From the NCBI GenBank assembly GCA_963674595.2, contig CAXXFV010000016.1, forward strand, positions 224,001 to 288,000: DNA of 64,000 nucleotides, read 5' to 3'. A model generated the notes under the pieces. It saw only the letters and a list, made by a program, of their open reading frames with translations, was not told the DNA's origin and made no database searches. This DNA is from a bacterium. Its GTDB lineage: Bacteria; Zhuqueibacterota; Zhuqueibacteria; Residuimicrobiales; Krinioviventaceae. Each line of letters opens with the position of its first letter. The stretch's first letter is position 1. Made by a program: the position numbers and the translations under genes. Shown piece by piece: positions 31,703 to 39,659 of the stretch.

Positions 31703-32317
31703 ATGGAACCGTTTACAACTTTAAAAAGTCGGTTTTTATCTTTACCTGTAAATGATATCGATACTGATCAGATAATTCCGGCCAGATTTTTAAAAGTAAC
31801 GGATAAAAATGGTTTGGGAGACAATCTGTTTTATGATTGGCGATATTTTTCAGATGGGTCTGTTCGGCCTGATTTTATCTTAAATCAAAAAACGGCTCAG
31901 AATGCAAAAATTTTAGTGGCAGGTGATAATTTTGGTTGCGGTTCAAGCCGCGAGCATGCACCCTGGGCATTATATGCTTTTGGATTTCGGGTTATTATCA
32001 GTACAAGCTTTGCAGATATTTTTAAAAATAATGCAATGAAAAACGGTCTTTTACCCGTTACGATTGACGAAAAAGTGCAAAATCATCTATTCGAACTGTT
32101 TGATAAAGATCAGCAAGCAGAACTGTTTGTCGATTTACAGAACCAGGAACTGGATGTTCCCGGTCATCAAAAGGTCCATTTTGAGATTGATTCTTTTAAC
32201 AAAAACTGCCTGCTCGAAGGAATTGATCAGCTTGGCTTTTTACTAAAGACATTACCGGAAATTCAATCCTTTGAAAAAAAATATCCAAAACGAGTTAATA
32301 CCCTGGAGATATTTTAA
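31703..32317 (+). CDS. leuD: 3-isopropylmalate dehydratase small subunit
   Basis: DIDTDQIIPARFL, NFGCGSSREHA, SFADIF. Confidence 0.97.
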   Translation: MEPFTTLKSRFLSLPVNDIDTDQIIPARFLKVTDKNGLGDNLFYDWRYFSDGSVRPDFILNQKTAQNAKILVAGDNFGCGSSREHAPWALYAFGFRVIISTSFADIFKNNAMKNGLLPVTIDEKVQNHLFELFDKDQQAELFVDLQNQELDVPGHQKVHFEIDSFNKNCLLEGIDQLGFLLKTLPEIQSFEKKYPKRVNTLEIF

Positions 32318-32380
32318 CTATATCATTTAATTGAAAAAACAATTAAATTGGAGGATTGTGTTACCTTTAAAGGAAATTAT

Positions 32381-33259
32381 ATGCTCAAAAGTTTTTTTTT
32401 AACAATTCTTACACTCACAAATATTATATATGCCCAACCCCATTTTGTGACAACAATACCGCCTTTTCAATTTATAATTAAAGAAATTACCGGGGAACGC
32501 GCGGATGTTTATTGTATTATCCCGCCGGGAGCTTCACCACACACCTATGAAATGAGAGCCTCTGACATGCGTAGTGTGGAAAAAGCGGATGCGCTTTTTA
32601 TGGGAAATGAAAACCTGGACAGATGGGCGTTAAAATTTAAAACAAAAAAAAGATGTGAGCTTGTCGATTTAATTCCTGCCGAGTATCGGCTGGTTTTTGA
32701 TAATCATAAAAGTCATTCTCATAAAGTACAAGGCCACAGCCACGATCATGATGGGGTGGACCCGCATTTTTGGTCTGATCCTTTAGCGGTTAAAGCAATT
32801 CTGCCCGCCCTAACAGCATATTTATCAGAGTTGGACCCGCCGGGGAAGCCTGTTTATGAAGAAAATATGACAGCTTTTTCCGGGCAATTAGATTCATTGG
32901 ATACACAAATAAAAACGTTATTGAAACCTGTAAAAGGTCATACTGTTATTTTGTCTCATCCCTTTTTTAGATATTTTTTTAACAGGTATGACCTGCATTT
33001 GGCAGGAATCGTTGAGATAGCAGCCGGTACGGAGCCGTCACCGAAGGATTTAGTTAAAGTGATTAAAATTATTAAAGATGAAAAGGTCAAGGCTATCTTT
33101 ACGCATCCGCAGCTTTCTGATCGTCCGTCACAAATTATCGCTGAAACTGCCGGCATTTTCTGTGTAATGTTGGATCCTCTTGGAGGTGTTGAAGGTAAAG
33201 CTTCCTATAAAGAATTGTTACTGGCTAATACCCATACAATTTTGGAGGCCCTTCAATGA
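32381..33259 (+). CDS. znuA: Zn/Mn ABC transporter substrate-binding protein
   Basis: PPGASPHTYE, His-rich loop HKSHSHKVQGHSHDHD, DPHFW, HPFFRYF, LDPLG. Confidence 0.88.
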   Translation: MLKSFFLTILTLTNIIYAQPHFVTTIPPFQFIIKEITGERADVYCIIPPGASPHTYEMRASDMRSVEKADALFMGNENLDRWALKFKTKKRCELVDLIPAEYRLVFDNHKSHSHKVQGHSHDHDGVDPHFWSDPLAVKAILPALTAYLSELDPPGKPVYEENMTAFSGQLDSLDTQIKTLLKPVKGHTVILSHPFFRYFFNRYDLHLAGIVEIAAGTEPSPKDLVKVIKIIKDEKVKAIFTHPQLSDRPSQIIAETAGIFCVMLDPLGGVEGKASYKELLLANTHTILEALQ

Positions 33260-34002
33260 GCGAACATGTTATTGACATTCGTCAACTTTCTATAAAGTTT
33301 GGCGATCACCTGGCTTTGGACAAGATAAAAGTACAAATTGAATCAGGTGATTTTGTCGCCATTGTAGGTCCAAATGGGGCCGGAAAATCAACCCTTTTTA
33401 AAGTCCTGCTGGGTTTATTACAGCCGACTGAGGGGCAGGTAAGGATTTTCGACGAACCTGCCTATCGTGCACCAGCTCAGTGGATTGGATATGTACCGCA
33501 AATGAAAACATTGGACCGGAGTTTTCCTGCTCAGGCTGTTGAATTGGTACTTACCGGTTTAAACAGAAGATGGCCCTGGCGGAAAGAAAAGTCAGAATAT
33601 AAAAAAGCCATAGAAGCATTGGAACAGGTGAGCGCTGAACATTTGGCTACAAGACCTGTTGGAAGATTGTCCGGTGGAGAGCTTCAAAGAGTTTGTCTGG
33701 CCCGGAGTATTGTTCGTCAGCCAAAAATTGTTTTGCTGGATGAACCGGCAACCGGTATTGACGCCATCGGTGAAGCGGACATGTATCGTTTGCTGGAAGC
33801 CTATCAAAAGCAAAGCAGCGCCACAATTCTTATGATTACCCATGACTGGCATGCAGCAACACATCATGCTGATAATGTCTTGTTACTGAACCGAAAAAAA
33901 ATTAGTTATGGCCCGCCTTCAGTTTCTTTGGCTGAAGATAATTTGCGATTGGCATTTGGTCATATCGGACATAAACATGAATTGAAATTTTTAATGAAAT
34001 AA
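33256..34002 (+). CDS. znuC: Zn/Mn ABC transporter ATPase
   Basis: GPNGAGKST, IGYVPQ, LSGGELQR, LLDEP, ITHD. Confidence 0.9.
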   Translation: MSEHVIDIRQLSIKFGDHLALDKIKVQIESGDFVAIVGPNGAGKSTLFKVLLGLLQPTEGQVRIFDEPAYRAPAQWIGYVPQMKTLDRSFPAQAVELVLTGLNRRWPWRKEKSEYKKAIEALEQVSAEHLATRPVGRLSGGELQRVCLARSIVRQPKIVLLDEPATGIDAIGEADMYRLLEAYQKQSSATILMITHDWHAATHHADNVLLLNRKKISYGPPSVSLAEDNLRLAFGHIGHKHELKFLMK

Positions 34003-34003
34003 T

Positions 34004-34807
34004 ATGATAGAAATATTTTCTTTACCCTTTATGCAGAGAGCCTTGATTGGCGGAATCCTGGTGGCCTTTTTAGCAAGTTATTATGGAGTTTTTGTTGTCC
34101 AGCGGGGTTTGTCTTTTTTAGGGAGCGGACTTGCTCATGCCGCCTTTGGCGGTGTGGCTTTGGGAATCTTGTTAAGTGTGGAACCTCTTTGGGTGGCTAT
34201 TCCCTTTACTGTTTTTGTTGCCATTGCAATTGCCTGGTTAAGAGAAAGGACCAAGCTTGGCAGCGATACGGCAATAGGCATTTTTTTTGCCGTTTCAATG
34301 GCGCTTGGAATTGTTTTTCTTTTTATCAGACGTGAATATACGGATGATGCATTTACATTCCTCTTTGGATCTATTTTAGCGGTTACCACAAAAGATATTT
34401 GGATGTCCTTTGGAGTCGTTTTGCTGACCCTTTTTACCACTCCCATGTGGAAAAGATGGGCTTATGCGTCATTTGACCGGGAACTGGCATTAACAGACCG
34501 TCTTTCTGTTCTCAGAGACGATTATTTATTAATTATTTTTATTGCTTTAACAGTGGTCGTTGCTATTAAAGTTGTGGGTATTGTTTTAATAGCCGCATTT
34601 CTTGTTATTCCTGCTGCCACGGCTCGTCTTTTAGCCCAAACTTTTAAGGTAATGACGATTATTTCCGTGTGTTTTGGAATTTTGGGTGTTATAGTTGGAC
34701 TTGTTTTATCTTATTATCTTGACCTTCCCAGCGGCGCTGTGATAATATTATTTCAGGCAATTATGTTTTTTATTGTTATTTTTATCTCAGCGATTCGAAA
34801 TAATTAG
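34004..34807 (+). CDS. znuB: Zn/Mn ABC transporter permease
   Basis: GLAHAAFGG, DTAIG, LFGSIL, VGIVLI, PSGAVII. Confidence 0.9.
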   Translation: MIEIFSLPFMQRALIGGILVAFLASYYGVFVVQRGLSFLGSGLAHAAFGGVALGILLSVEPLWVAIPFTVFVAIAIAWLRERTKLGSDTAIGIFFAVSMALGIVFLFIRREYTDDAFTFLFGSILAVTTKDIWMSFGVVLLTLFTTPMWKRWAYASFDRELALTDRLSVLRDDYLLIIFIALTVVVAIKVVGIVLIAAFLVIPAATARLLAQTFKVMTIISVCFGILGVIVGLVLSYYLDLPSGAVIILFQAIMFFIVIFISAIRNN

Positions 34808-34825
34808 TCCGGGAGTTGTTAACTA

Positions 34826-35122
34826 TTGGTTAATTTTAAAAAATATTTAATAATTTTTCTGGCACTATTTGTTGCTTTTCTGGTTGTTTATCAACCAGTT
34901 TTTCATAATCACCAGCCTGATTTTCGTGATCATGAAAGCTGTCCTTCAACATTGCTGGCAATATTATTTTCTGTTGACTCATTTCTGTTTATAAAGGTTT
35001 TTGTTCTTTTTCTGTTTGTCTTTTTTGATTTATTGTTTACACCAACATTTCAAAGATGTTCTTTTTTTATACCATTATTAAATTATAAAAGGGGTCCTCC
35101 CGCATATTGTGATGTTTTATAA
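34826..35122 (+). CDS. DUF2946-like upstream ORF / putative RGPP ribosome-arrest peptide
   Basis: TTG start after GGGAG; hydrophobic helix, HNH..H..C motif, second hydrophobic segment, RGPP six residues before stop; precedes lipoprotein and TBDR. Confidence 0.75.
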   Translation: MVNFKKYLIIFLALFVAFLVVYQPVFHNHQPDFRDHESCPSTLLAILFSVDSFLFIKVFVLFLFVFFDLLFTPTFQRCSFFIPLLNYKRGPPAYCDVL

Positions 35123-35152
35123 ATTTGTAAAATTTTACAACATATTAGGGAG
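35097..35152 (+). promoter_or_regulatory. SD-sequestering hairpin spanning the uORF Pro-Pro codons and the downstream RBS
   Basis: CTCCC (35097-35101) complementary to GGGAG (35148-35152); inner stem 35104-35121 pairs with 35126-35145 (some G-U pairs, one mismatch, one bulge). Confidence 0.7.
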
Positions 35153-35158
35153 AAAAAA

Positions 35159-35614
35159 ATGCATAATTTTAAAAAATATATATCCGTATTTTTTTGTATT
35201 GGTGTGCTATTTGTTATCGGTTGCAGTGAAGATAATCCCGTTGAACCAACTGAAACTCATAATGAGGCTGAAGGATTAATCCTTCGAACTGATGGTCAGG
35301 ATTTGGTCATTGTAAAGGAAGGTACTGTAAAATCCGGACAGATCACTGTTAATGTAGATAGCCAAACACCAACAATTAAAGCTGTATTTTTAGATGAAGA
35401 TGATGACGAGTTTGAACCTCATGAAGAGGGCTCGTCGCTTGCTTTTGAGTTTGGAAGTAATGAAACAGCAGAAGCTGTTATGGTGGACGGTAAACAGTGG
35501 GAGTTTGTTGTTAACGGTAAAAAGGTCGGAACAACAACCCTGGTAGTTAAATTAATGCATGGAGATCACAGCGATTTTTTGACTCCTAACATAACTGTTT
35601 CTGTAACAGAGTAA
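35159..35614 (+). CDS. His-containing lipoprotein, probable metal-binding TBDR partner
   Basis: Lipobox VIGC; THNEAEG, PHEEG, MHGDHSDF. Confidence 0.8.
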   Translation: MHNFKKYISVFFCIGVLFVIGCSEDNPVEPTETHNEAEGLILRTDGQDLVIVKEGTVKSGQITVNVDSQTPTIKAVFLDEDDDEFEPHEEGSSLAFEFGSNETAEAVMVDGKQWEFVVNGKKVGTTTLVVKLMHGDHSDFLTPNITVSVTE

Positions 35615-35629
35615 TTTATTAAGGAACAC

Positions 35630-37846
35630 ATGATGCGTACAATAGTTCTTTTTACGCTTCTGACTGTTTCATTTGCATATACCGCAGTTCCTTCCTCAAC
35701 GGACCGGAACTGCGGTTCCTTATATGGCGTATTTCTCGATGCTGAAACAGGACAGGGAGTTGGTGGCATTCAGGTTTTACTGAATGAAATTAAACGATCA
35801 GGGGTTACACATGAAGATGGTCATTTTTTTCTACCGGCTATTCCAATGGGAACCTATACGGTACAGACATTTCGAATCGGTTATAAAAATATTGTCAAAA
35901 ATATTGCTATAAATCGATGTGATACAATCCGTGTTGAATTTCACATTTTTAAAGCTCCAATTATGCTGAATGCCGTTATGGTTGATGCAGAAGAGGAAAA
36001 TACACTTGATTTTGTTATGGATAAAAATCCGGTTGAGCTTGAAGGTAAACGACTGCGTCGCCAATTGGGACGGACAATTGCTGAAACCCTCGTCAACGAG
36101 CCCGGCATTGATCAAAGGACCATGGGACCCGCGCCTGCTCGTCCGGTTTTGCGAGGATTAAGCGGTGATCGTTTACTCGTATTGGAAGATGGTGAACGTA
36201 CCGGAGATTTATCTGCAACATCTGCTGATCATGCTGTTGTTATTGAACCGATGACTGCGGAGCGTGTTGAAGTTATTCGCGGTCCGGAGGCTTTGCTGTA
36301 TGGTTCCAATACCATTGGTGGTGTTATTAATGTCGATCGCGGTTATGTTCCTACAACGAACCTTGACCATTGGCATGGGACTGTTTCTTATCAGGGCGAA
36401 TCGGTCAATAATGGGCACAGTAGTGGAATCAAGGTTAATTTACCGGCGGGACCTTTTTCTATGCATGTTGATGCAAGCATGCGAAATACACAGGATATAA
36501 AAACACCTAAAAAGAAACTCTTGAATACCAGTATTATTACCAACAATGCTTCATTGGGCATGAGCATTGTAAGACCATGGGGCCTTTTAGGTGTTGCCGG
36601 TAGTTTGTATGATAGCGAATATGGTATACCGGGCGGTTTTATCGGTGCCCACAAGTCCGGTGTAGATGTTGAGCTGAACAGACGTCATTTTGAAGCAAAG
36701 TCTGAATTTTATTTTCAGAATGATTGGATAAAAAGAGTAAATGCCCGTTATAATTTTTCCAGATATTATCATCTTGAACGGGAAGCAAATGGTATTCCCG
36801 GAATTGAATTCGGTGTTTTAAATTATAATTTTTCATTGATGGCTCGTTTAAAAGACCATCCTCATTTTAAAAATGGTGAAGTTGGGCTATGGAGTGAATA
36901 TCGTGATTTTGCAGCCGGTGTGTATGCTTTTACTCCTCAAGCAGTTGAAAAGAAAATAGCTGGTTTTGCTTTCCAGGAGTTTATCTTGGGACGTTTTGGG
37001 ATAAAAGCGGCCCTTCGCTATGATGTGCTGCAAGTAATTCCTCAGCAGGAAAAGTATGATAAAAAAATTGGTTACATTCAAAACCGAAATTTTTCTGATT
37101 TTTCCGGTTCTTTTGCAGCAATATACGAAATAAATCGTCATTTACATTATGGAACGACGGTAATGAAAAGTTTTCGATCTCCAGGCATTGAAGAACTGTA
37201 TTCACGGGGACCACATTTAGCAGCTTATTCTTTTGAGATTGGAAATCCATCTTTGGGTAAAGAACAGGGTATAGGTATAGAAACCTTTTTACATTTTGAA
37301 GGGCAACCCGGAAATGCCCAAATAGCATTATTTCGCAATAATATATCCGGCTATGTTTTTCCCAAAAACACAGGTCAGTTGGATTACAGCACATTATTAC
37401 CTGTTTACCAGTATTCCGGATCTAATGTGATAATAGAGGGATGTGAATTGGCCTTTGAGTTGCTGCCCTGGCAGTTTATAGCTTTTTCCGGAAGCATGAG
37501 TTATGTTTATGGTGAAATGGATTCCGGAGAAGCCATGCCATTGATGCCCCCGTTACATGGCAAACTTGATGTTCAGTTACTGTGGAACCAAACAACAATT
37601 GGTTTTCGTGCAAGAGCAGCGGATGAGCAAACCAGGCTTGGACGTTTTGAAGAATATACCGCTGGTTTTACTGTTTACGATCTTATGGGGCAATATTTAT
37701 TAAATGTTGGTCACTATTTATCTTCAATAAATTTGACGATAGAAAATATTACCAACCAGGAATATCGAAAACATTTATCTCGTGTTAAGGCCGTTATGCC
37801 TGAACCAGGAAGAAATGTAAAACTATTATTTAGAATTTATTTTTAA
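35630..37846 (+). CDS. TonB-dependent receptor, ZnuD-like metal transporter
   Basis: Plug RPVLRGLSGDR, SADHAV, EVIRGPEALLYG; EELYSRGPH; YRKHLSR..PEPGRN..YF. Confidence 0.9.
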   Translation: MMRTIVLFTLLTVSFAYTAVPSSTDRNCGSLYGVFLDAETGQGVGGIQVLLNEIKRSGVTHEDGHFFLPAIPMGTYTVQTFRIGYKNIVKNIAINRCDTIRVEFHIFKAPIMLNAVMVDAEEENTLDFVMDKNPVELEGKRLRRQLGRTIAETLVNEPGIDQRTMGPAPARPVLRGLSGDRLLVLEDGERTGDLSATSADHAVVIEPMTAERVEVIRGPEALLYGSNTIGGVINVDRGYVPTTNLDHWHGTVSYQGESVNNGHSSGIKVNLPAGPFSMHVDASMRNTQDIKTPKKKLLNTSIITNNASLGMSIVRPWGLLGVAGSLYDSEYGIPGGFIGAHKSGVDVELNRRHFEAKSEFYFQNDWIKRVNARYNFSRYYHLEREANGIPGIEFGVLNYNFSLMARLKDHPHFKNGEVGLWSEYRDFAAGVYAFTPQAVEKKIAGFAFQEFILGRFGIKAALRYDVLQVIPQQEKYDKKIGYIQNRNFSDFSGSFAAIYEINRHLHYGTTVMKSFRSPGIEELYSRGPHLAAYSFEIGNPSLGKEQGIGIETFLHFEGQPGNAQIALFRNNISGYVFPKNTGQLDYSTLLPVYQYSGSNVIIEGCELAFELLPWQFIAFSGSMSYVYGEMDSGEAMPLMPPLHGKLDVQLLWNQTTIGFRARAADEQTRLGRFEEYTAGFTVYDLMGQYLLNVGHYLSSINLTIENITNQEYRKHLSRVKAVMPEPGRNVKLLFRIYF

Positions 37847-37865
37847 ATCCAATTCTGTTTTAAAT

Positions 37866-39659
37866 TTATTTTGCCAACAGCATTTTTATTGATTTACTGG
37901 TATTTCCTGTTCTCAGGTGACATATATATATTCCTGATGCTACCAAATTTCCATTTTCATCCAGTCCATCCCATTTGCTCATATAGTGCCCGGCAGGTTG
38001 ATAACAGTTCTCAAGAGTTCTTATTTCTTTTCCTGTTATGTCGTAAACGGCAAGATGAATGTCCATAGCATTGGGAATTTCATATTCAATTTGTGTTGAC
38101 GGATTAAATGGATTCGGGTAATTTTGTGCAAGCTGAAAACTAGTTGGAATGTTTTTATCTCCTTTATATTCCACGGATACATAGTTTGGTTCTGTTATTT
38201 CGTGATATTGATTGATATCGACATTTTTTAATACTTGTTTATATCCCAATGGCCATTTTATAGTGACCGAATCAATACTTGTTGCGAATCCGATTCCAAA
38301 ATGGACCCAGGGATTATACTGGTTAAAATGTTGATCTCCACATCGTGTTAACCGAATTTGTTTTTTATCGCCGGTATAAATTGTAACCAGACTACCGACA
38401 GCATCTTTGTTGGAAATTGTTCCTTCTAAAATAAAACCAACCCAATTGGCATCGTTTCCACCTTGATTTTCATAGAGTATATGTCCAAATTCTGGTGAAG
38501 GTATATAAATATCTAAAAATCCGTCGCGATTGAAATCAAAAAAACCACAGTTTTTTCGGCCTCCTAATTTGTCAATACCTGCAAATTCAGCAACATCTAC
38601 AAAAGTACGTACACCGGGTGATACCTCTATATTAGACAAGTAAAAGTCGGGACTTTGAGCATTGCCGCTATCAAGAAAAACATCCTGATCACCATCATTA
38701 TCTGCATCACCAAATGTGACACCCCGGTGAGCATATTGCATCCCGTTGAGTCCGGCCTGAAGAGAGATGTCATAATATACGCCGTCTCTATTTTCCCAAA
38801 GTTCGTTGTAATCCGGGCTATCTAAACGAGCTGTTACCTTGAAAAAATCAAGGTCACCATCGTTGTCATAATCAAAAAATCTTTTGTACCAGCAAGTGCC
38901 AATCTCGGCAAAGCCTAATTCTTCGGTTACATTGGTAAAAACGCCATTGTCATTTCTTAAAAAATTTGATTTACCGACCAAATCAGGATCACCGTCAAGG
39001 TCAAAATCCGTAAAAACGACCCGCCATTCTTCAGCAAGAGGTGTATTATCAAGCCCTGCTTCAGTAGCAACATTTGTAAAATGGTCACCGTCGTTTCGAA
39101 ATAGATACAAATTGTCATAACTTAGCTGACTGACAACACAATCCAGATCACCATCTAAATCATAATCAGCCCACCCGCAAATATTACAGTCCCATTCAAT
39201 TATGAATCCACCCGGTTTTGGGGCGATAAAACCCATTTCCTCAGAAACTTCGGTAAATACATTATCATCATTTCTGAGCAGGTGAATAGCATCGATAGTT
39301 GCCATGGAAAGGTCTTTGTCACCATCATTATCATAATCGGCCCACAATGTTGTCCGTGTTGACTTTTCCTGTAAATCTATTTGCTCTATTGGGGTTTGGT
39401 CTGTTATATCGGTAAAATGAACATTATTATTTGTGTATATTCTGCTATAACCCGGTTCCTGCCATCTTGTACAAAAAATATCCTGATAACCATTACGATC
39501 AATGTCTGCCAGGGCCAGACCTCCCTTTTCAAATGGTGGAAATCCAAGTCCCAGACTGATATTGTCGGCAACAATAAAATAGGTCAGTTCCTGTGCTTGA
39601 AGGGAAAAAGCTGAAAATAAAATGCAAAATTGGATAACTATGTAGCGAACTGTTTTCAT
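37866..39659 (-). CDS. CRTAC1/ASPIC-UnbV FG-GAP repeat protein with T9SS/FlgD tail
   Basis: Many DYDNDGDxD repeats; SNKDAVG...VHFGIG...IKWP; QNYPNPFNP. Confidence 0.9.
   Translation of the reverse strand: MKTVRYIVIQFCILFSAFSLQAQELTYFIVADNISLGLGFPPFEKGGLALADIDRNGYQDIFCTRWQEPGYSRIYTNNNVHFTDITDQTPIEQIDLQEKSTRTTLWADYDNDGDKDLSMATIDAIHLLRNDDNVFTEVSEEMGFIAPKPGGFIIEWDCNICGWADYDLDGDLDCVVSQLSYDNLYLFRNDGDHFTNVATEAGLDNTPLAEEWRVVFTDFDLDGDPDLVGKSNFLRNDNGVFTNVTEELGFAEIGTCWYKRFFDYDNDGDLDFFKVTARLDSPDYNELWENRDGVYYDISLQAGLNGMQYAHRGVTFGDADNDGDQDVFLDSGNAQSPDFYLSNIEVSPGVRTFVDVAEFAGIDKLGGRKNCGFFDFNRDGFLDIYIPSPEFGHILYENQGGNDANWVGFILEGTISNKDAVGSLVTIYTGDKKQIRLTRCGDQHFNQYNPWVHFGIGFATSIDSVTIKWPLGYKQVLKNVDINQYHEITEPNYVSVEYKGDKNIPTSFQLAQNYPNPFNPSTQIEYEIPNAMDIHLAVYDITGKEIRTLENCYQPAGHYMSKWDGLDENGNLVASGIYICHLRTGNTSKSIKMLLAK

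Follow-up and report, generated by a model that had tools for sequence, protein, structure and literature searches.

The 64,000-nucleotide (nt) stretch of contig CAXXFV010000016.1 (assembly GCA_963674595.2, positions 224,001 to 288,000) that was analyzed here, referred to below as the window, carries a 98-amino-acid (aa) open reading frame (ORF) between a set of znuACB-type metal uptake genes and a gene pair encoding a lipoprotein and a TonB-dependent receptor. This ORF is a real, conserved gene, in which the only strongly conserved parts are a His/Cys motif and a C-terminal R[AGS]PP motif placed at a fixed distance from it. Judged from its sequence, it probably encodes a regulatory leader peptide of the CruR/CutF kind, which would form a separate, unnamed sequence family and act as a switch that unmasks the downstream gene's Shine-Dalgarno (SD) sequence. 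The following were computed directly in this work: (i) the conservation of the family, (ii) the fixed “ruler” between the two motifs, (iii) the pairing between the downstream SD and the arrest site and (iv) the link with ZnuA/ABC-3 and outer-membrane genes. The preliminary description of this region had proposed a metal-sensing translational switch; the comparative evidence appears to bear out that interpretation to a large extent, and the system is less novel than was claimed there.

The elements of the leader gene and of the adjacent hairpin are located as follows (window coordinates):

34811..34815, + strand: SD-like GGGAG of the leader, 10 nt before its TTG start codon (read from the sequence)
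34826..35122, + strand: leader ORF, 98 aa, unnamed HNH...C / R[AGS]PP family (ORF list, genome and profile searches)
34844..34891, + strand: N-terminal hydrophobic segment, aa 7-22, following a K-rich start (family hydropathy profile)
34904..34942, + strand: putative metal-sensor loop H27-N-H29-Q-P-D32-F-R-D-H36-E-S-C39 (conservation)
34949..35050, + strand: second hydrophobic segment, approximately aa 42-75, of variable sequence in the family and absent in the CPAC sister subfamily
35090..35101, + strand: RGPP codons AGG GGT CCT CCC, putative arrest site (P-site CCT, A-site CCC)
35097..35152, + strand: predicted hairpin of 22 pairs, with CUCCC (35097-35101) and GGGAG (35148-35152) as the outer stem (RNAfold)
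35148..35152, + strand: SD (GGGAG) of the lipoprotein gene, sequestered in the predicted hairpin, 6 nt before the ATG at 35159

All of the components ascribed to the ORF in the preliminary description (a transmembrane helix, the motif HNH-x6-H-x2-C, a second hydrophobic segment and RGPP) are present at these coordinates. The sensor motif of the window leader reads H27-N-H29-x6-H36-x2-C39 and its single Cys lies in the sequence C39-P-S-T, while the R89-G-P-P92 motif, with the two Pro at residues 91-92 of 98, ends 6 residues before the stop codon. The assignment of the Pro codons to the P and A sites rests on analogy with the toeprinting of CruR (PMC12992588). The segment spanning aa 7-22 is likely to be a signal anchor; the export signal was judged from the K-rich start and from the hydrophobic stretch of 16-20 residues seen in the hydropathy profile of the family.

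A word-indexed homolog search with the window protein as the single query retrieved only the protein itself. In a six-frame search of 41 related genomes, open frames of the same layout and 97-135 aa in length were found directly 5′ of lipoprotein or receptor homologs. A profile search of a database of 1.84 billion representatives returned 407 representative clusters at E≤1e-3, of which 86 reached E≤1e-10; almost all of the proteins measure 90-115 aa. Of the 167 genomes of the phylum, 44 contain the leader family (E≤1e-5), as do 31 of the 105 that are of good quality. The matching public contigs are labelled candidate division KSB1, in some cases “uncultured Cytophagia” and in one case as an Ignavibacterium album metagenome-assembled genome (MAG). 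The family members are called hypothetical in these sources, and none of them carries a precomputed Pfam domain.

In an alignment of 17 sequences the only invariant positions are H27, H29, C39, R89, P91 and P92; N28, D32 and H36 are each at least 90% conserved. Among the best 150 representatives from the profile search, HxH-x9-C is carried by 141, and the C-terminal motif is RAPP in 92, RGPP in 23, RSPP in 16 and RPPP in one (R[AGS]PP in 131 and RxPP in 132). The conservation of the arrest motif, on which the preliminary description had made its reading depend, is evident from both samples. The other 18 representatives comprise 12 with KAPP or KSPP, one with HAPP and five apparently truncated or frameshifted sequences. 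The sequence N-K-[AS]-P-P thus takes the place of R-x-P-P in 12 of the 150 (including P0032, P0037, P0052, P0064 and P0071); KAPP does not occur in the accessible text of PMC12992588. In most of these 150 sequences the tail past the Pro-Pro pair is only 1-4 residues long. The distance from Cys to Arg is 46-49 residues in every one of the 123 sequences scored for both motifs. At the nucleotide level, all six Arg codons, varied Ala codons and all Pro codons are used over the loci and, since these codons vary freely, selection acts on the peptide. At a few loci (L009/L048, G021:C82; L087, G122:C318; L094, G123:C32) the leader frame lacks its stop at the ordinary place and runs on for another 30-42 codons, into the beginning of the gene that follows.

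A hydropathy profile was built from 137 of the 150 representatives, with the Cys as the anchor point, and gave the following order of elements: a Lys-rich N-terminus, a hydrophobic segment of 16-20 residues, the loop P-[FL]-L-H-N-H-E-P-D-F-x-E-H-x-D-C-P-A, approximately 24-30 further hydrophobic residues without sequence conservation (the second segment), an unconserved neutral linker and the arrest motif. More distant members from the same phylum make up a sister subfamily (L096-L115, e.g. L104:5916-10518 and L113:52-4589), in which the loop is HNH..D..FHDNCPACQW, with a CxxC (CPAC) motif, and the second segment is hydrophilic instead of hydrophobic. In this CPAC subfamily the first Cys is separated from the Arg of RAPP/RGPP by 52-53 residues in 14 of 14 members scored; one more CxxC member was mis-scored by the pattern. 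As the CPAC subfamily lacks the second hydrophobic segment, this segment must be dispensable to the role of the family, whereas the spacing ruler is not.

These data also bear on a different view of the ORF, namely that it encodes a stable two-pass membrane protein (e.g. a metal-binding accessory subunit of the uptake system), with R[AGS]PP as a structural or turnover feature and the hairpin as a general mRNA element. A conserved His/Cys loop between two hydrophobic segments and the co-location with transporter genes would suit such a protein, and the two hydrophobic segments mean that even a genuine leader could remain in the membrane after its synthesis and have a separate function there as a small protein, a point that weighs against a purely regulatory role. 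However, the second hydrophobic segment is unconserved, and it is missing from the CPAC subfamily, in which the spacing to RAPP is nevertheless kept; the linker preceding the arrest motif is likewise unconserved. Moreover, RAPP and RGPP are reported to be among the most avoided bacterial tetrapeptides (PMC12992588), and here they are near-invariant at 1-4 residues from the stop. A membrane protein without a leader function is thus very improbable, and the ORF is treated below as a leader.

At the RNA level, the predicted masking of the SD is conserved, although the sequence is not. RNAfold analysis of positions 35085-35165 gave a structure with a minimum free energy (MFE) of -18.4 kcal/mol and a z-score of -2.41 relative to 200 shuffled sequences, 5 of which folded at least as well. 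Its 22 pairs, closed by the CUCCC/GGGAG stem, agree with the hairpin of about 23 pairs and the same outer stem that had been folded by hand in the preliminary description. The leader stop codon (35120-35122) sits in the 5′ arm, and the computed probability of the lipoprotein SD being unpaired, P(unpaired), is 0.00. Taken alone, the window hairpin is modestly better than chance; its significance comes from comparative data.

For the comparison, the RNA of each locus was folded between the start of the Arg codon (its first base included) and a point 6 bases beyond the downstream start, and was scored if at least three SD bases paired within nt 1-24. The first set consisted of 15 of 17 loci (one at a contig end and one whose leader reads through into the receptor gene were dropped) with intergenic gaps of 36-202 nt, and pairing of the SD with the arrest site was present in the MFE structure of 13. 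The second, more distant set comprised 22 of 30 loci (one at a contig end, one containing Ns and six without a start passing the SD filter were dropped) with gaps of 59-340 nt, and 14 of these scored. In both sets together, the downstream SD is therefore predicted to pair with the arrest site at 27 of 37 loci. Other same-strand gene junctions from the same loci and the window, folded identically as controls, scored in 19 of 115 cases; three of these were themselves leader junctions, leaving 16 of 112. The difference between leaders and controls (Fisher test, odds ratio 16, p 6e-11) is overstated by its p-value because the loci are related. The conservation of the hairpin among homologs, which the preliminary description had put forward as a check, is borne out by this comparison, and the comparative signature of SD unmasking that it yields is unusually clear. 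Two of the loci dropped by the SD filter, L091 and L094, show perfect 9-10-bp pairing of the Pro codons with the SD.

The position of the pairing partner was also analyzed. Across the leader and the intergenic region, the 16-nt segment at the arrest site is the best duplex partner of the SD region in 11 of the 15 loci of the first set and in 7 of the 22 loci of the second. Where the Pro codons are CCU-CCN, the anti-SD consists of the Pro codons themselves; where they are CCG-CCG, it is shifted to the tail codons and the stop (e.g. UCC UUU UAA with UUAAAGGA). The same SD-masking hairpin is predicted in the Ignavibacterium-labelled MAG and in a second leader copy of the window's own genome (G000:C23:421785-422042; L040:7962-8279), which encodes 105 aa with RAPP and lies, with a 38-nt gap, directly 5′ of a gene for a 788-aa TonB-dependent receptor. 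For the SD, the median P(unpaired) amounts to 0.05 at the loci of the first set and to 0.17 at those of the second, compared with 0.30-0.44 for 30 window genes. When the lipoprotein gene was removed from these controls, SD accessibility was below that of the 29 other window genes with a Mann-Whitney p of 1e-4. An arrested ribosome is assumed to reach approximately 15 nt 3′ of its P site. All of the predicted anti-SD positions fall within nt 3-22 from the Arg codon and, since the two Pro codons occupy the P and A sites when CruR arrests, they would lie in or at the leading edge of the arrested ribosome.

Several points weigh against SD masking as the function of this pairing. At 10 of the 37 loci there is no SD/arrest-site pairing in the MFE structure, and the window hairpin by itself reaches a z-score of only -2.4. 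The gene starts compared were picked by the presence of an SD, and the phylogenetic relatedness of the loci inflates all p-values. In addition, C-rich Pro codons in an AT-rich genome pair naturally with a G-rich SD, and part of the signal could therefore be a by-product. The shift of the anti-SD into the tail codons argues against this last view.

The same leader and the same arrest could also act on transcription, the stalled ribosome blocking Rho or another terminator and the hairpin being incidental or secondary. CruR, the only characterized leader of a TonB-dependent transporter, acts by Rho-dependent termination (PMC9426467), and at many homologous loci the gap to the next gene is long, reaching 340 nt. 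In the window, however, the leader and the lipoprotein gene are separated by just 36 nt of AT-rich sequence, and a scan of the region found no intrinsic-terminator-like site after the leader. The specific pairing, which 27 of 37 loci show but only 16 of 112 control junctions, is predicted by SD masking and not by the Rho model. A transcriptional output in place of SD masking is on these grounds quite unlikely, although the two are not mutually exclusive.

The metal that the SD-unmasking leader might sense was approached through its gene context. The genes flanking the leader in the window are the following:

32381..33259, + strand: znuA, periplasmic metal-binding protein (PF01297, 1e-64)
33256..34002, + strand: znuC-like ATP-binding cassette (ABC) ATPase gene (PF00005, 3e-32)
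34004..34807, + strand: znuB-like ABC-3 permease gene (PF00950, 1e-69)
35159..35614, + strand: lipoprotein gene, 151 aa, lipobox Cys22 (own alignment and AF2 model)
35630..37846, + strand: TonB-dependent receptor gene, with an N-terminal CarboxypepD_reg-like domain (PF00593 1e-24, PF07715 9e-17, PF13715 1e-10)

The placement of the leader between znuB and the lipoprotein-receptor pair, as given in the preliminary description, is supported by the Pfam matches to ZnuA, ABC ATPase and ABC-3 upstream and to the receptor downstream. The znuA start is the ATG at 32381, within a longer ORF that begins at 32348. The leader ORF starts 18 nt after the znuB stop, and the receptor gene begins 15 nt after the lipoprotein gene. 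A mid-operon position had been claimed for the leader and is not peculiar to the window, since in several homologs an unrelated gene on the same strand (e.g. rfbC, APS kinase or a PBP-like gene) precedes the leader by 3-40 nt; others head the operon. The receptor had been called ZnuD-like. ZnuD is indeed its top row in NCBIfam, but the score of 145 bits is far under the cut-off of 950.

The core module of leader, lipoprotein and receptor is shared by approximately 11 close loci, and in four others the receptor comes directly after the leader. At one locus (G027), the leader is followed by genes for a 356-aa His-rich outer-membrane protein, ZnuA, an ABC ATPase (ZnuC) and ABC-3 (ZnuB). At approximately 20 of 30 distant loci the order is leader, a 420-460-aa signal-peptide protein without a Pfam match, ZnuA (PF01297) and one or two ABC-3 permeases; the leaders of the CPAC subfamily head operons of this type, with a 420-460-aa outer-membrane protein, ZnuA and ABC-3 permeases. 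The zinc-type context noted in the preliminary description thus recurs in many independent loci. Because the family heads such operons of outer-membrane protein, ZnuA and ABC-3 genes at about 20 of 30 distant loci, zinc appears to be the likeliest ligand, with a probability that we would place somewhat above even on the basis of gene context and sequence.

The proteins of 356-460 aa encoded between the leader and ZnuA form a family of their own, with a signal peptide, without a Pfam match and always in this position (L049:8314-9387, L104:6375-7628, L113:449-1714). They are probably outer-membrane channels for the same metal. Some members have an N-terminal coiled-coil-like stretch and a His/Glu-rich insert.

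Three His ligands mark zinc-type rather than manganese-type binding proteins, and His is kept at the three ligand positions in all 20 aligned ZnuA homologs. The invariant Cys of the sensor, too, fits a thiophilic metal. There are nevertheless observations that weigh against zinc. The ZnuA Pfam family also holds manganese and iron binders, and the His-rich loop (7 His within 30 aa) is present only in the ZnuA of the window and in none of the 19 homologs, whose metal specificity is therefore less certain.

Copper, or nickel or cobalt, could be sensed by the same switch in place of zinc. Cys and His motifs bind copper as well, the CPAC subfamily has a CxxC like that of CruR, and all of the characterized relatives by design sense copper. 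However, the recurrent neighbours of the leader are ZnuA/ABC-3 uptake genes, the ZnuA homologs keep their three His ligand positions, and none of the copper families searched for (PCuAC, Sco, CopC, YcnI, multicopper oxidase, PepSY_TM) was found among approximately 250 neighbour proteins scanned. A NicO-like nickel/cobalt transporter gene (PF03824, 1e-13) is located at L116:766-1584, after a leader-controlled receptor. It is the only non-Znu metal transporter gene seen adjoining a leader, and it speaks for nickel or cobalt at this one locus. In sum, a ligand other than zinc in this group seems improbable.

The role of the leader relative to classical zinc regulation was assessed by searching for Fur/Zur-family genes (PF01475) at E≤1e-3. 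None was found in the window's genome, which is 97.6% complete; the control search was positive in 13 of 14 reference genomes. Over the phylum, PF01475 was found in 126 of the 167 genomes, most of the leader-carrying ones included (the 167-genome listings include the unpublished genomes G158, in the DUF2946 search described below, and G162, in the FUR search). A complementarity between the absence of the Fur family and the presence of the leader was considered and rejected on this count. With a Fur-family regulator present beside the leader in most genomes, zinc sensing may not depend chiefly on the leader, which weighs against seeing it as the main sensor.

That the ribosome arrests, that a metal is bound, which metal this is and in which direction it regulates are all predictions, which may be combined into the following scheme. 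Synthesis of the leader peptide would begin with the signal-anchor segment, after which the short His/Asp/Cys loop (H27, H29, D32, H36, C39) would become exposed. Approximately 50 residues further on, the ribosome would arrest at R89-G-P-P92, its P and A sites being occupied by the two Pro codons. In this state it would cover positions 35097-35101 and the next 10-15 nt or so, i.e. the 5′ arm of the hairpin. By holding 35097-35111 single-stranded, the stalled ribosome would leave the SD at 35148-35152 free and allow translation of the lipoprotein gene, and the receptor gene, lying 15 nt behind it, would probably be translated along with it. Upon release of the stall the leader would terminate, the hairpin would re-form and translation of the outer-membrane uptake genes would drop. 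With about 35 residues held in the exit tunnel, the loop, lying approximately 50-64 residues from the peptidyl-transferase center, is expected at or just beyond the translocon. Binding of a metal, most likely zinc, to the nascent loop could there alter the pulling or folding force and so set the lifetime of the stall. As to the sign of regulation, analogy with CruR, in which metal shortens the stall and turns uptake off, makes the same sign here slightly the better bet because the downstream system is one of uptake; induction by the substrate is unlikely.

The remaining features of the locus concern the lipoprotein and possible transcription signals. The lipoprotein was modelled as an Ig-like beta-sandwich fold (AlphaFold2, AF2; pLDDT 86.9). 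Alignment identified H34, D81, H134, H137 and D139 as invariant residues; the N-terminal stretch is of the DHDHAEA type and the family has no Pfam entry. A Foldseek search with the model returned generic Ig-like domains only and was uninformative on the metal. At some loci the lipoprotein is duplicated or has two domains (e.g. L043:5387-7246), and once it is encoded 5′ of the leader.

The palindrome TTAATTG-AAAAAA-CAATTAA is present at 32327-32346, in the gap of approximately 60 nt between leuD and znuA, just 5′ of the znuA SD. From its sequence it is a possible operator; no counterpart or shared operator was seen by eye 5′ of the leaders at other loci. A promoter-like sequence (TTGACC, 16 nt, GATAAT, with TG) occurs at 34719-34746, within the 3′ end of znuB and approximately 80 nt before the leader. 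It is among the three best + strand promoter matches of the region, but in the promoter and terminator scan the number of matches was not above that in shuffled sequences. Rfam gave no match at E≤1 across 32000-38300, and a look-up of RNA runs covering 33800-36800 returned none.

If the link with zinc is true, the principle of nascent-peptide metal sensing after transcription, so far shown only for copper (CruR and CutF), would be extended to a second metal and to the control of uptake by SD masking. Such a family would be distinguished by the absence of a DUF2946 match, the same ruler, SD-unmasking over spacers of 36-340 nt and the control of outer-membrane channels together with ZnuABC. In its fullest form, this reading would make the leader the first zinc-responsive arrest leader. 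It would represent a KSB1-wide family in which a nascent HNH...H..C loop, approximately 48 residues from R[AG]PP, gates whole zinc-acquisition modules (receptor or porin plus ZnuABC) by SD unmasking and serves as the principal zinc sensor in genomes without a detected Fur/Zur protein. We regard this full version as tentative and somewhat more likely to fail than to hold. Several hundred “hypothetical” small ORFs of an uncultured phylum gain an annotation from the present analysis, as do two unannotated partner families, one of Ig-like lipoproteins with invariant His and Asp residues and one of outer-membrane proteins of 420-460 aa. Furthermore, the shift of the anti-SD between the Pro and the tail codons constitutes a natural comparative data set on the co-evolution of arrest site and mRNA structure.

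In comparison with known systems, the first question is that of membership in DUF2946 (PF11162). The window protein gave no match at E≤1, the 17 aligned members gave none at E≤10 and 149 representatives none at E≤0.01. In six-frame searches, the window's genome contained no match at E≤10 and none of the 167 phylum genomes had one above the cut-off; the listed sub-threshold places coincide with no leader locus. In the absence of a Pfam DUF2946 match the protein is not a recognized CruR/CutF member, which agrees with the distinctness from CruR claimed in the preliminary description, as does the single Cys in place of CXXC. In a language-model look-up, which serves as a lead only, clusters labelled DUF2946, DUF2607 and DUF6769 were the nearest among named ones (0.88-0.90). 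Identity with DUF2607 was rejected, as one representative reached 22.5 bits against a cut-off of 24 and a genome search with PF10795 matched no leader locus.

In Bordetella pertussis, the DUF2946 leader CruR (Bp2923) contains a CXXC motif and, 45±2 residues away from it, a RAPP that lies three residues from the end of the peptide (PMC9426467). Copper relieves its stall, and Rho then terminates transcription before the receptor gene, within a GC-rich intergenic region of 162 nt (PMC9426467). By toeprinting, the P and A sites of the arrested ribosome were assigned to the two Pro codons (PMC12992588). According to Roy et al. (PMC9426467), no riboswitch has been described for copper or zinc. The window leader resembles CruR in (i) its association with a TonB-dependent transporter, (ii) a C-terminal RAPP-type motif near the stop and an N-terminal export signal, (iii) a fixed spacing between sensor and RAPP (45±2 residues in CruR and 46-49 here) and (iv) the expected logic, in which metal would turn uptake off. 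It differs in having a single Cys in place of CXXC and, as predicted, in SD masking as its output, as opposed to Rho-dependent termination. Furthermore, cruR is reported to be first in its operons, whereas the window leader begins 18 nt after znuB, and the genes associated with CruR are those for copper and PepSY_TM and not ZnuABC.

CutF of Rhodobacter capsulatus, called DUF2946 by its authors, is closer in its output, since its stalling reportedly opens a stem-loop covering the cutO ribosome-binding site (PMC9973294; bioRxiv 10.1101/2025.02.05.636593). The preliminary description had regarded SD masking as setting the window leader apart from the known copper systems, which in view of CutF is wrong. 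Both are small exported leaders in which a metal motif that includes Cys is combined with a Pro-rich stalling motif at the C-terminus and an SD-shielding stem-loop, and the window ORF passes the filters of Ozturk et al. 2023 (<150 aa, PP in the last 15 residues, an N-terminal signal and a same-strand gene within 1000 nt). CutF-like proteins have been grouped into 29 clusters, with Cys, His or mixed motifs, encoded 5′ of efflux, TonB-like and PCuAC genes (PMC9973294). The present family is set apart from CutF by hidden Markov model and motif: it has no DUF2946 match, its motif is HNH-x6-H-x2-C as against CxxxC, and it has a second hydrophobic segment. Its downstream genes serve uptake (lipoprotein and TonB-dependent receptor, ZnuABC), those of CutF detoxification by a multicopper oxidase. 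Copper induces stalling of CutF and, given the uptake genes found here, the sign expected for the window leader is therefore the opposite one. The likely metal also differs, zinc not being mentioned in the main text of PMC9973294.

Arrest by RAPP and RGPP is a wider phenomenon. Both motifs arrest ribosomes in several species, RGPP being the strongest core and RSPP partly permissive (PMC12992588). The same study has already catalogued in silico an enrichment of small RAPP/RGPP ORFs 5′ of TonB-dependent receptors. The characterized arrest peptides of this class, ApdA and ApdP, monitor Sec/YidC activity (PMC12992588, PMC10951233, PMC7897499). They share with the window leader the R-A/G-P-P core near the C-terminus and the organization as a small exported protein 5′ of the regulated gene; the HNH...C loop, the link with ZnuABC and the conserved SD pairing are not described for them in the accessible text of these papers. 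A literature search found no RAPP-type or other arrest peptide tied to zinc, a word absent from the five RAPP/CruR papers that it listed, the supplementary lists of PMC9973294 and PMC12992588, which may hold members of the family, lying outside its coverage. Taken together, the kind of device and its SD-masking output are already known, and what differs here is the sequence family, the single-Cys HNH...H..C sensor, the optional second hydrophobic segment, the frequent mid-operon position and the link with ZnuABC.

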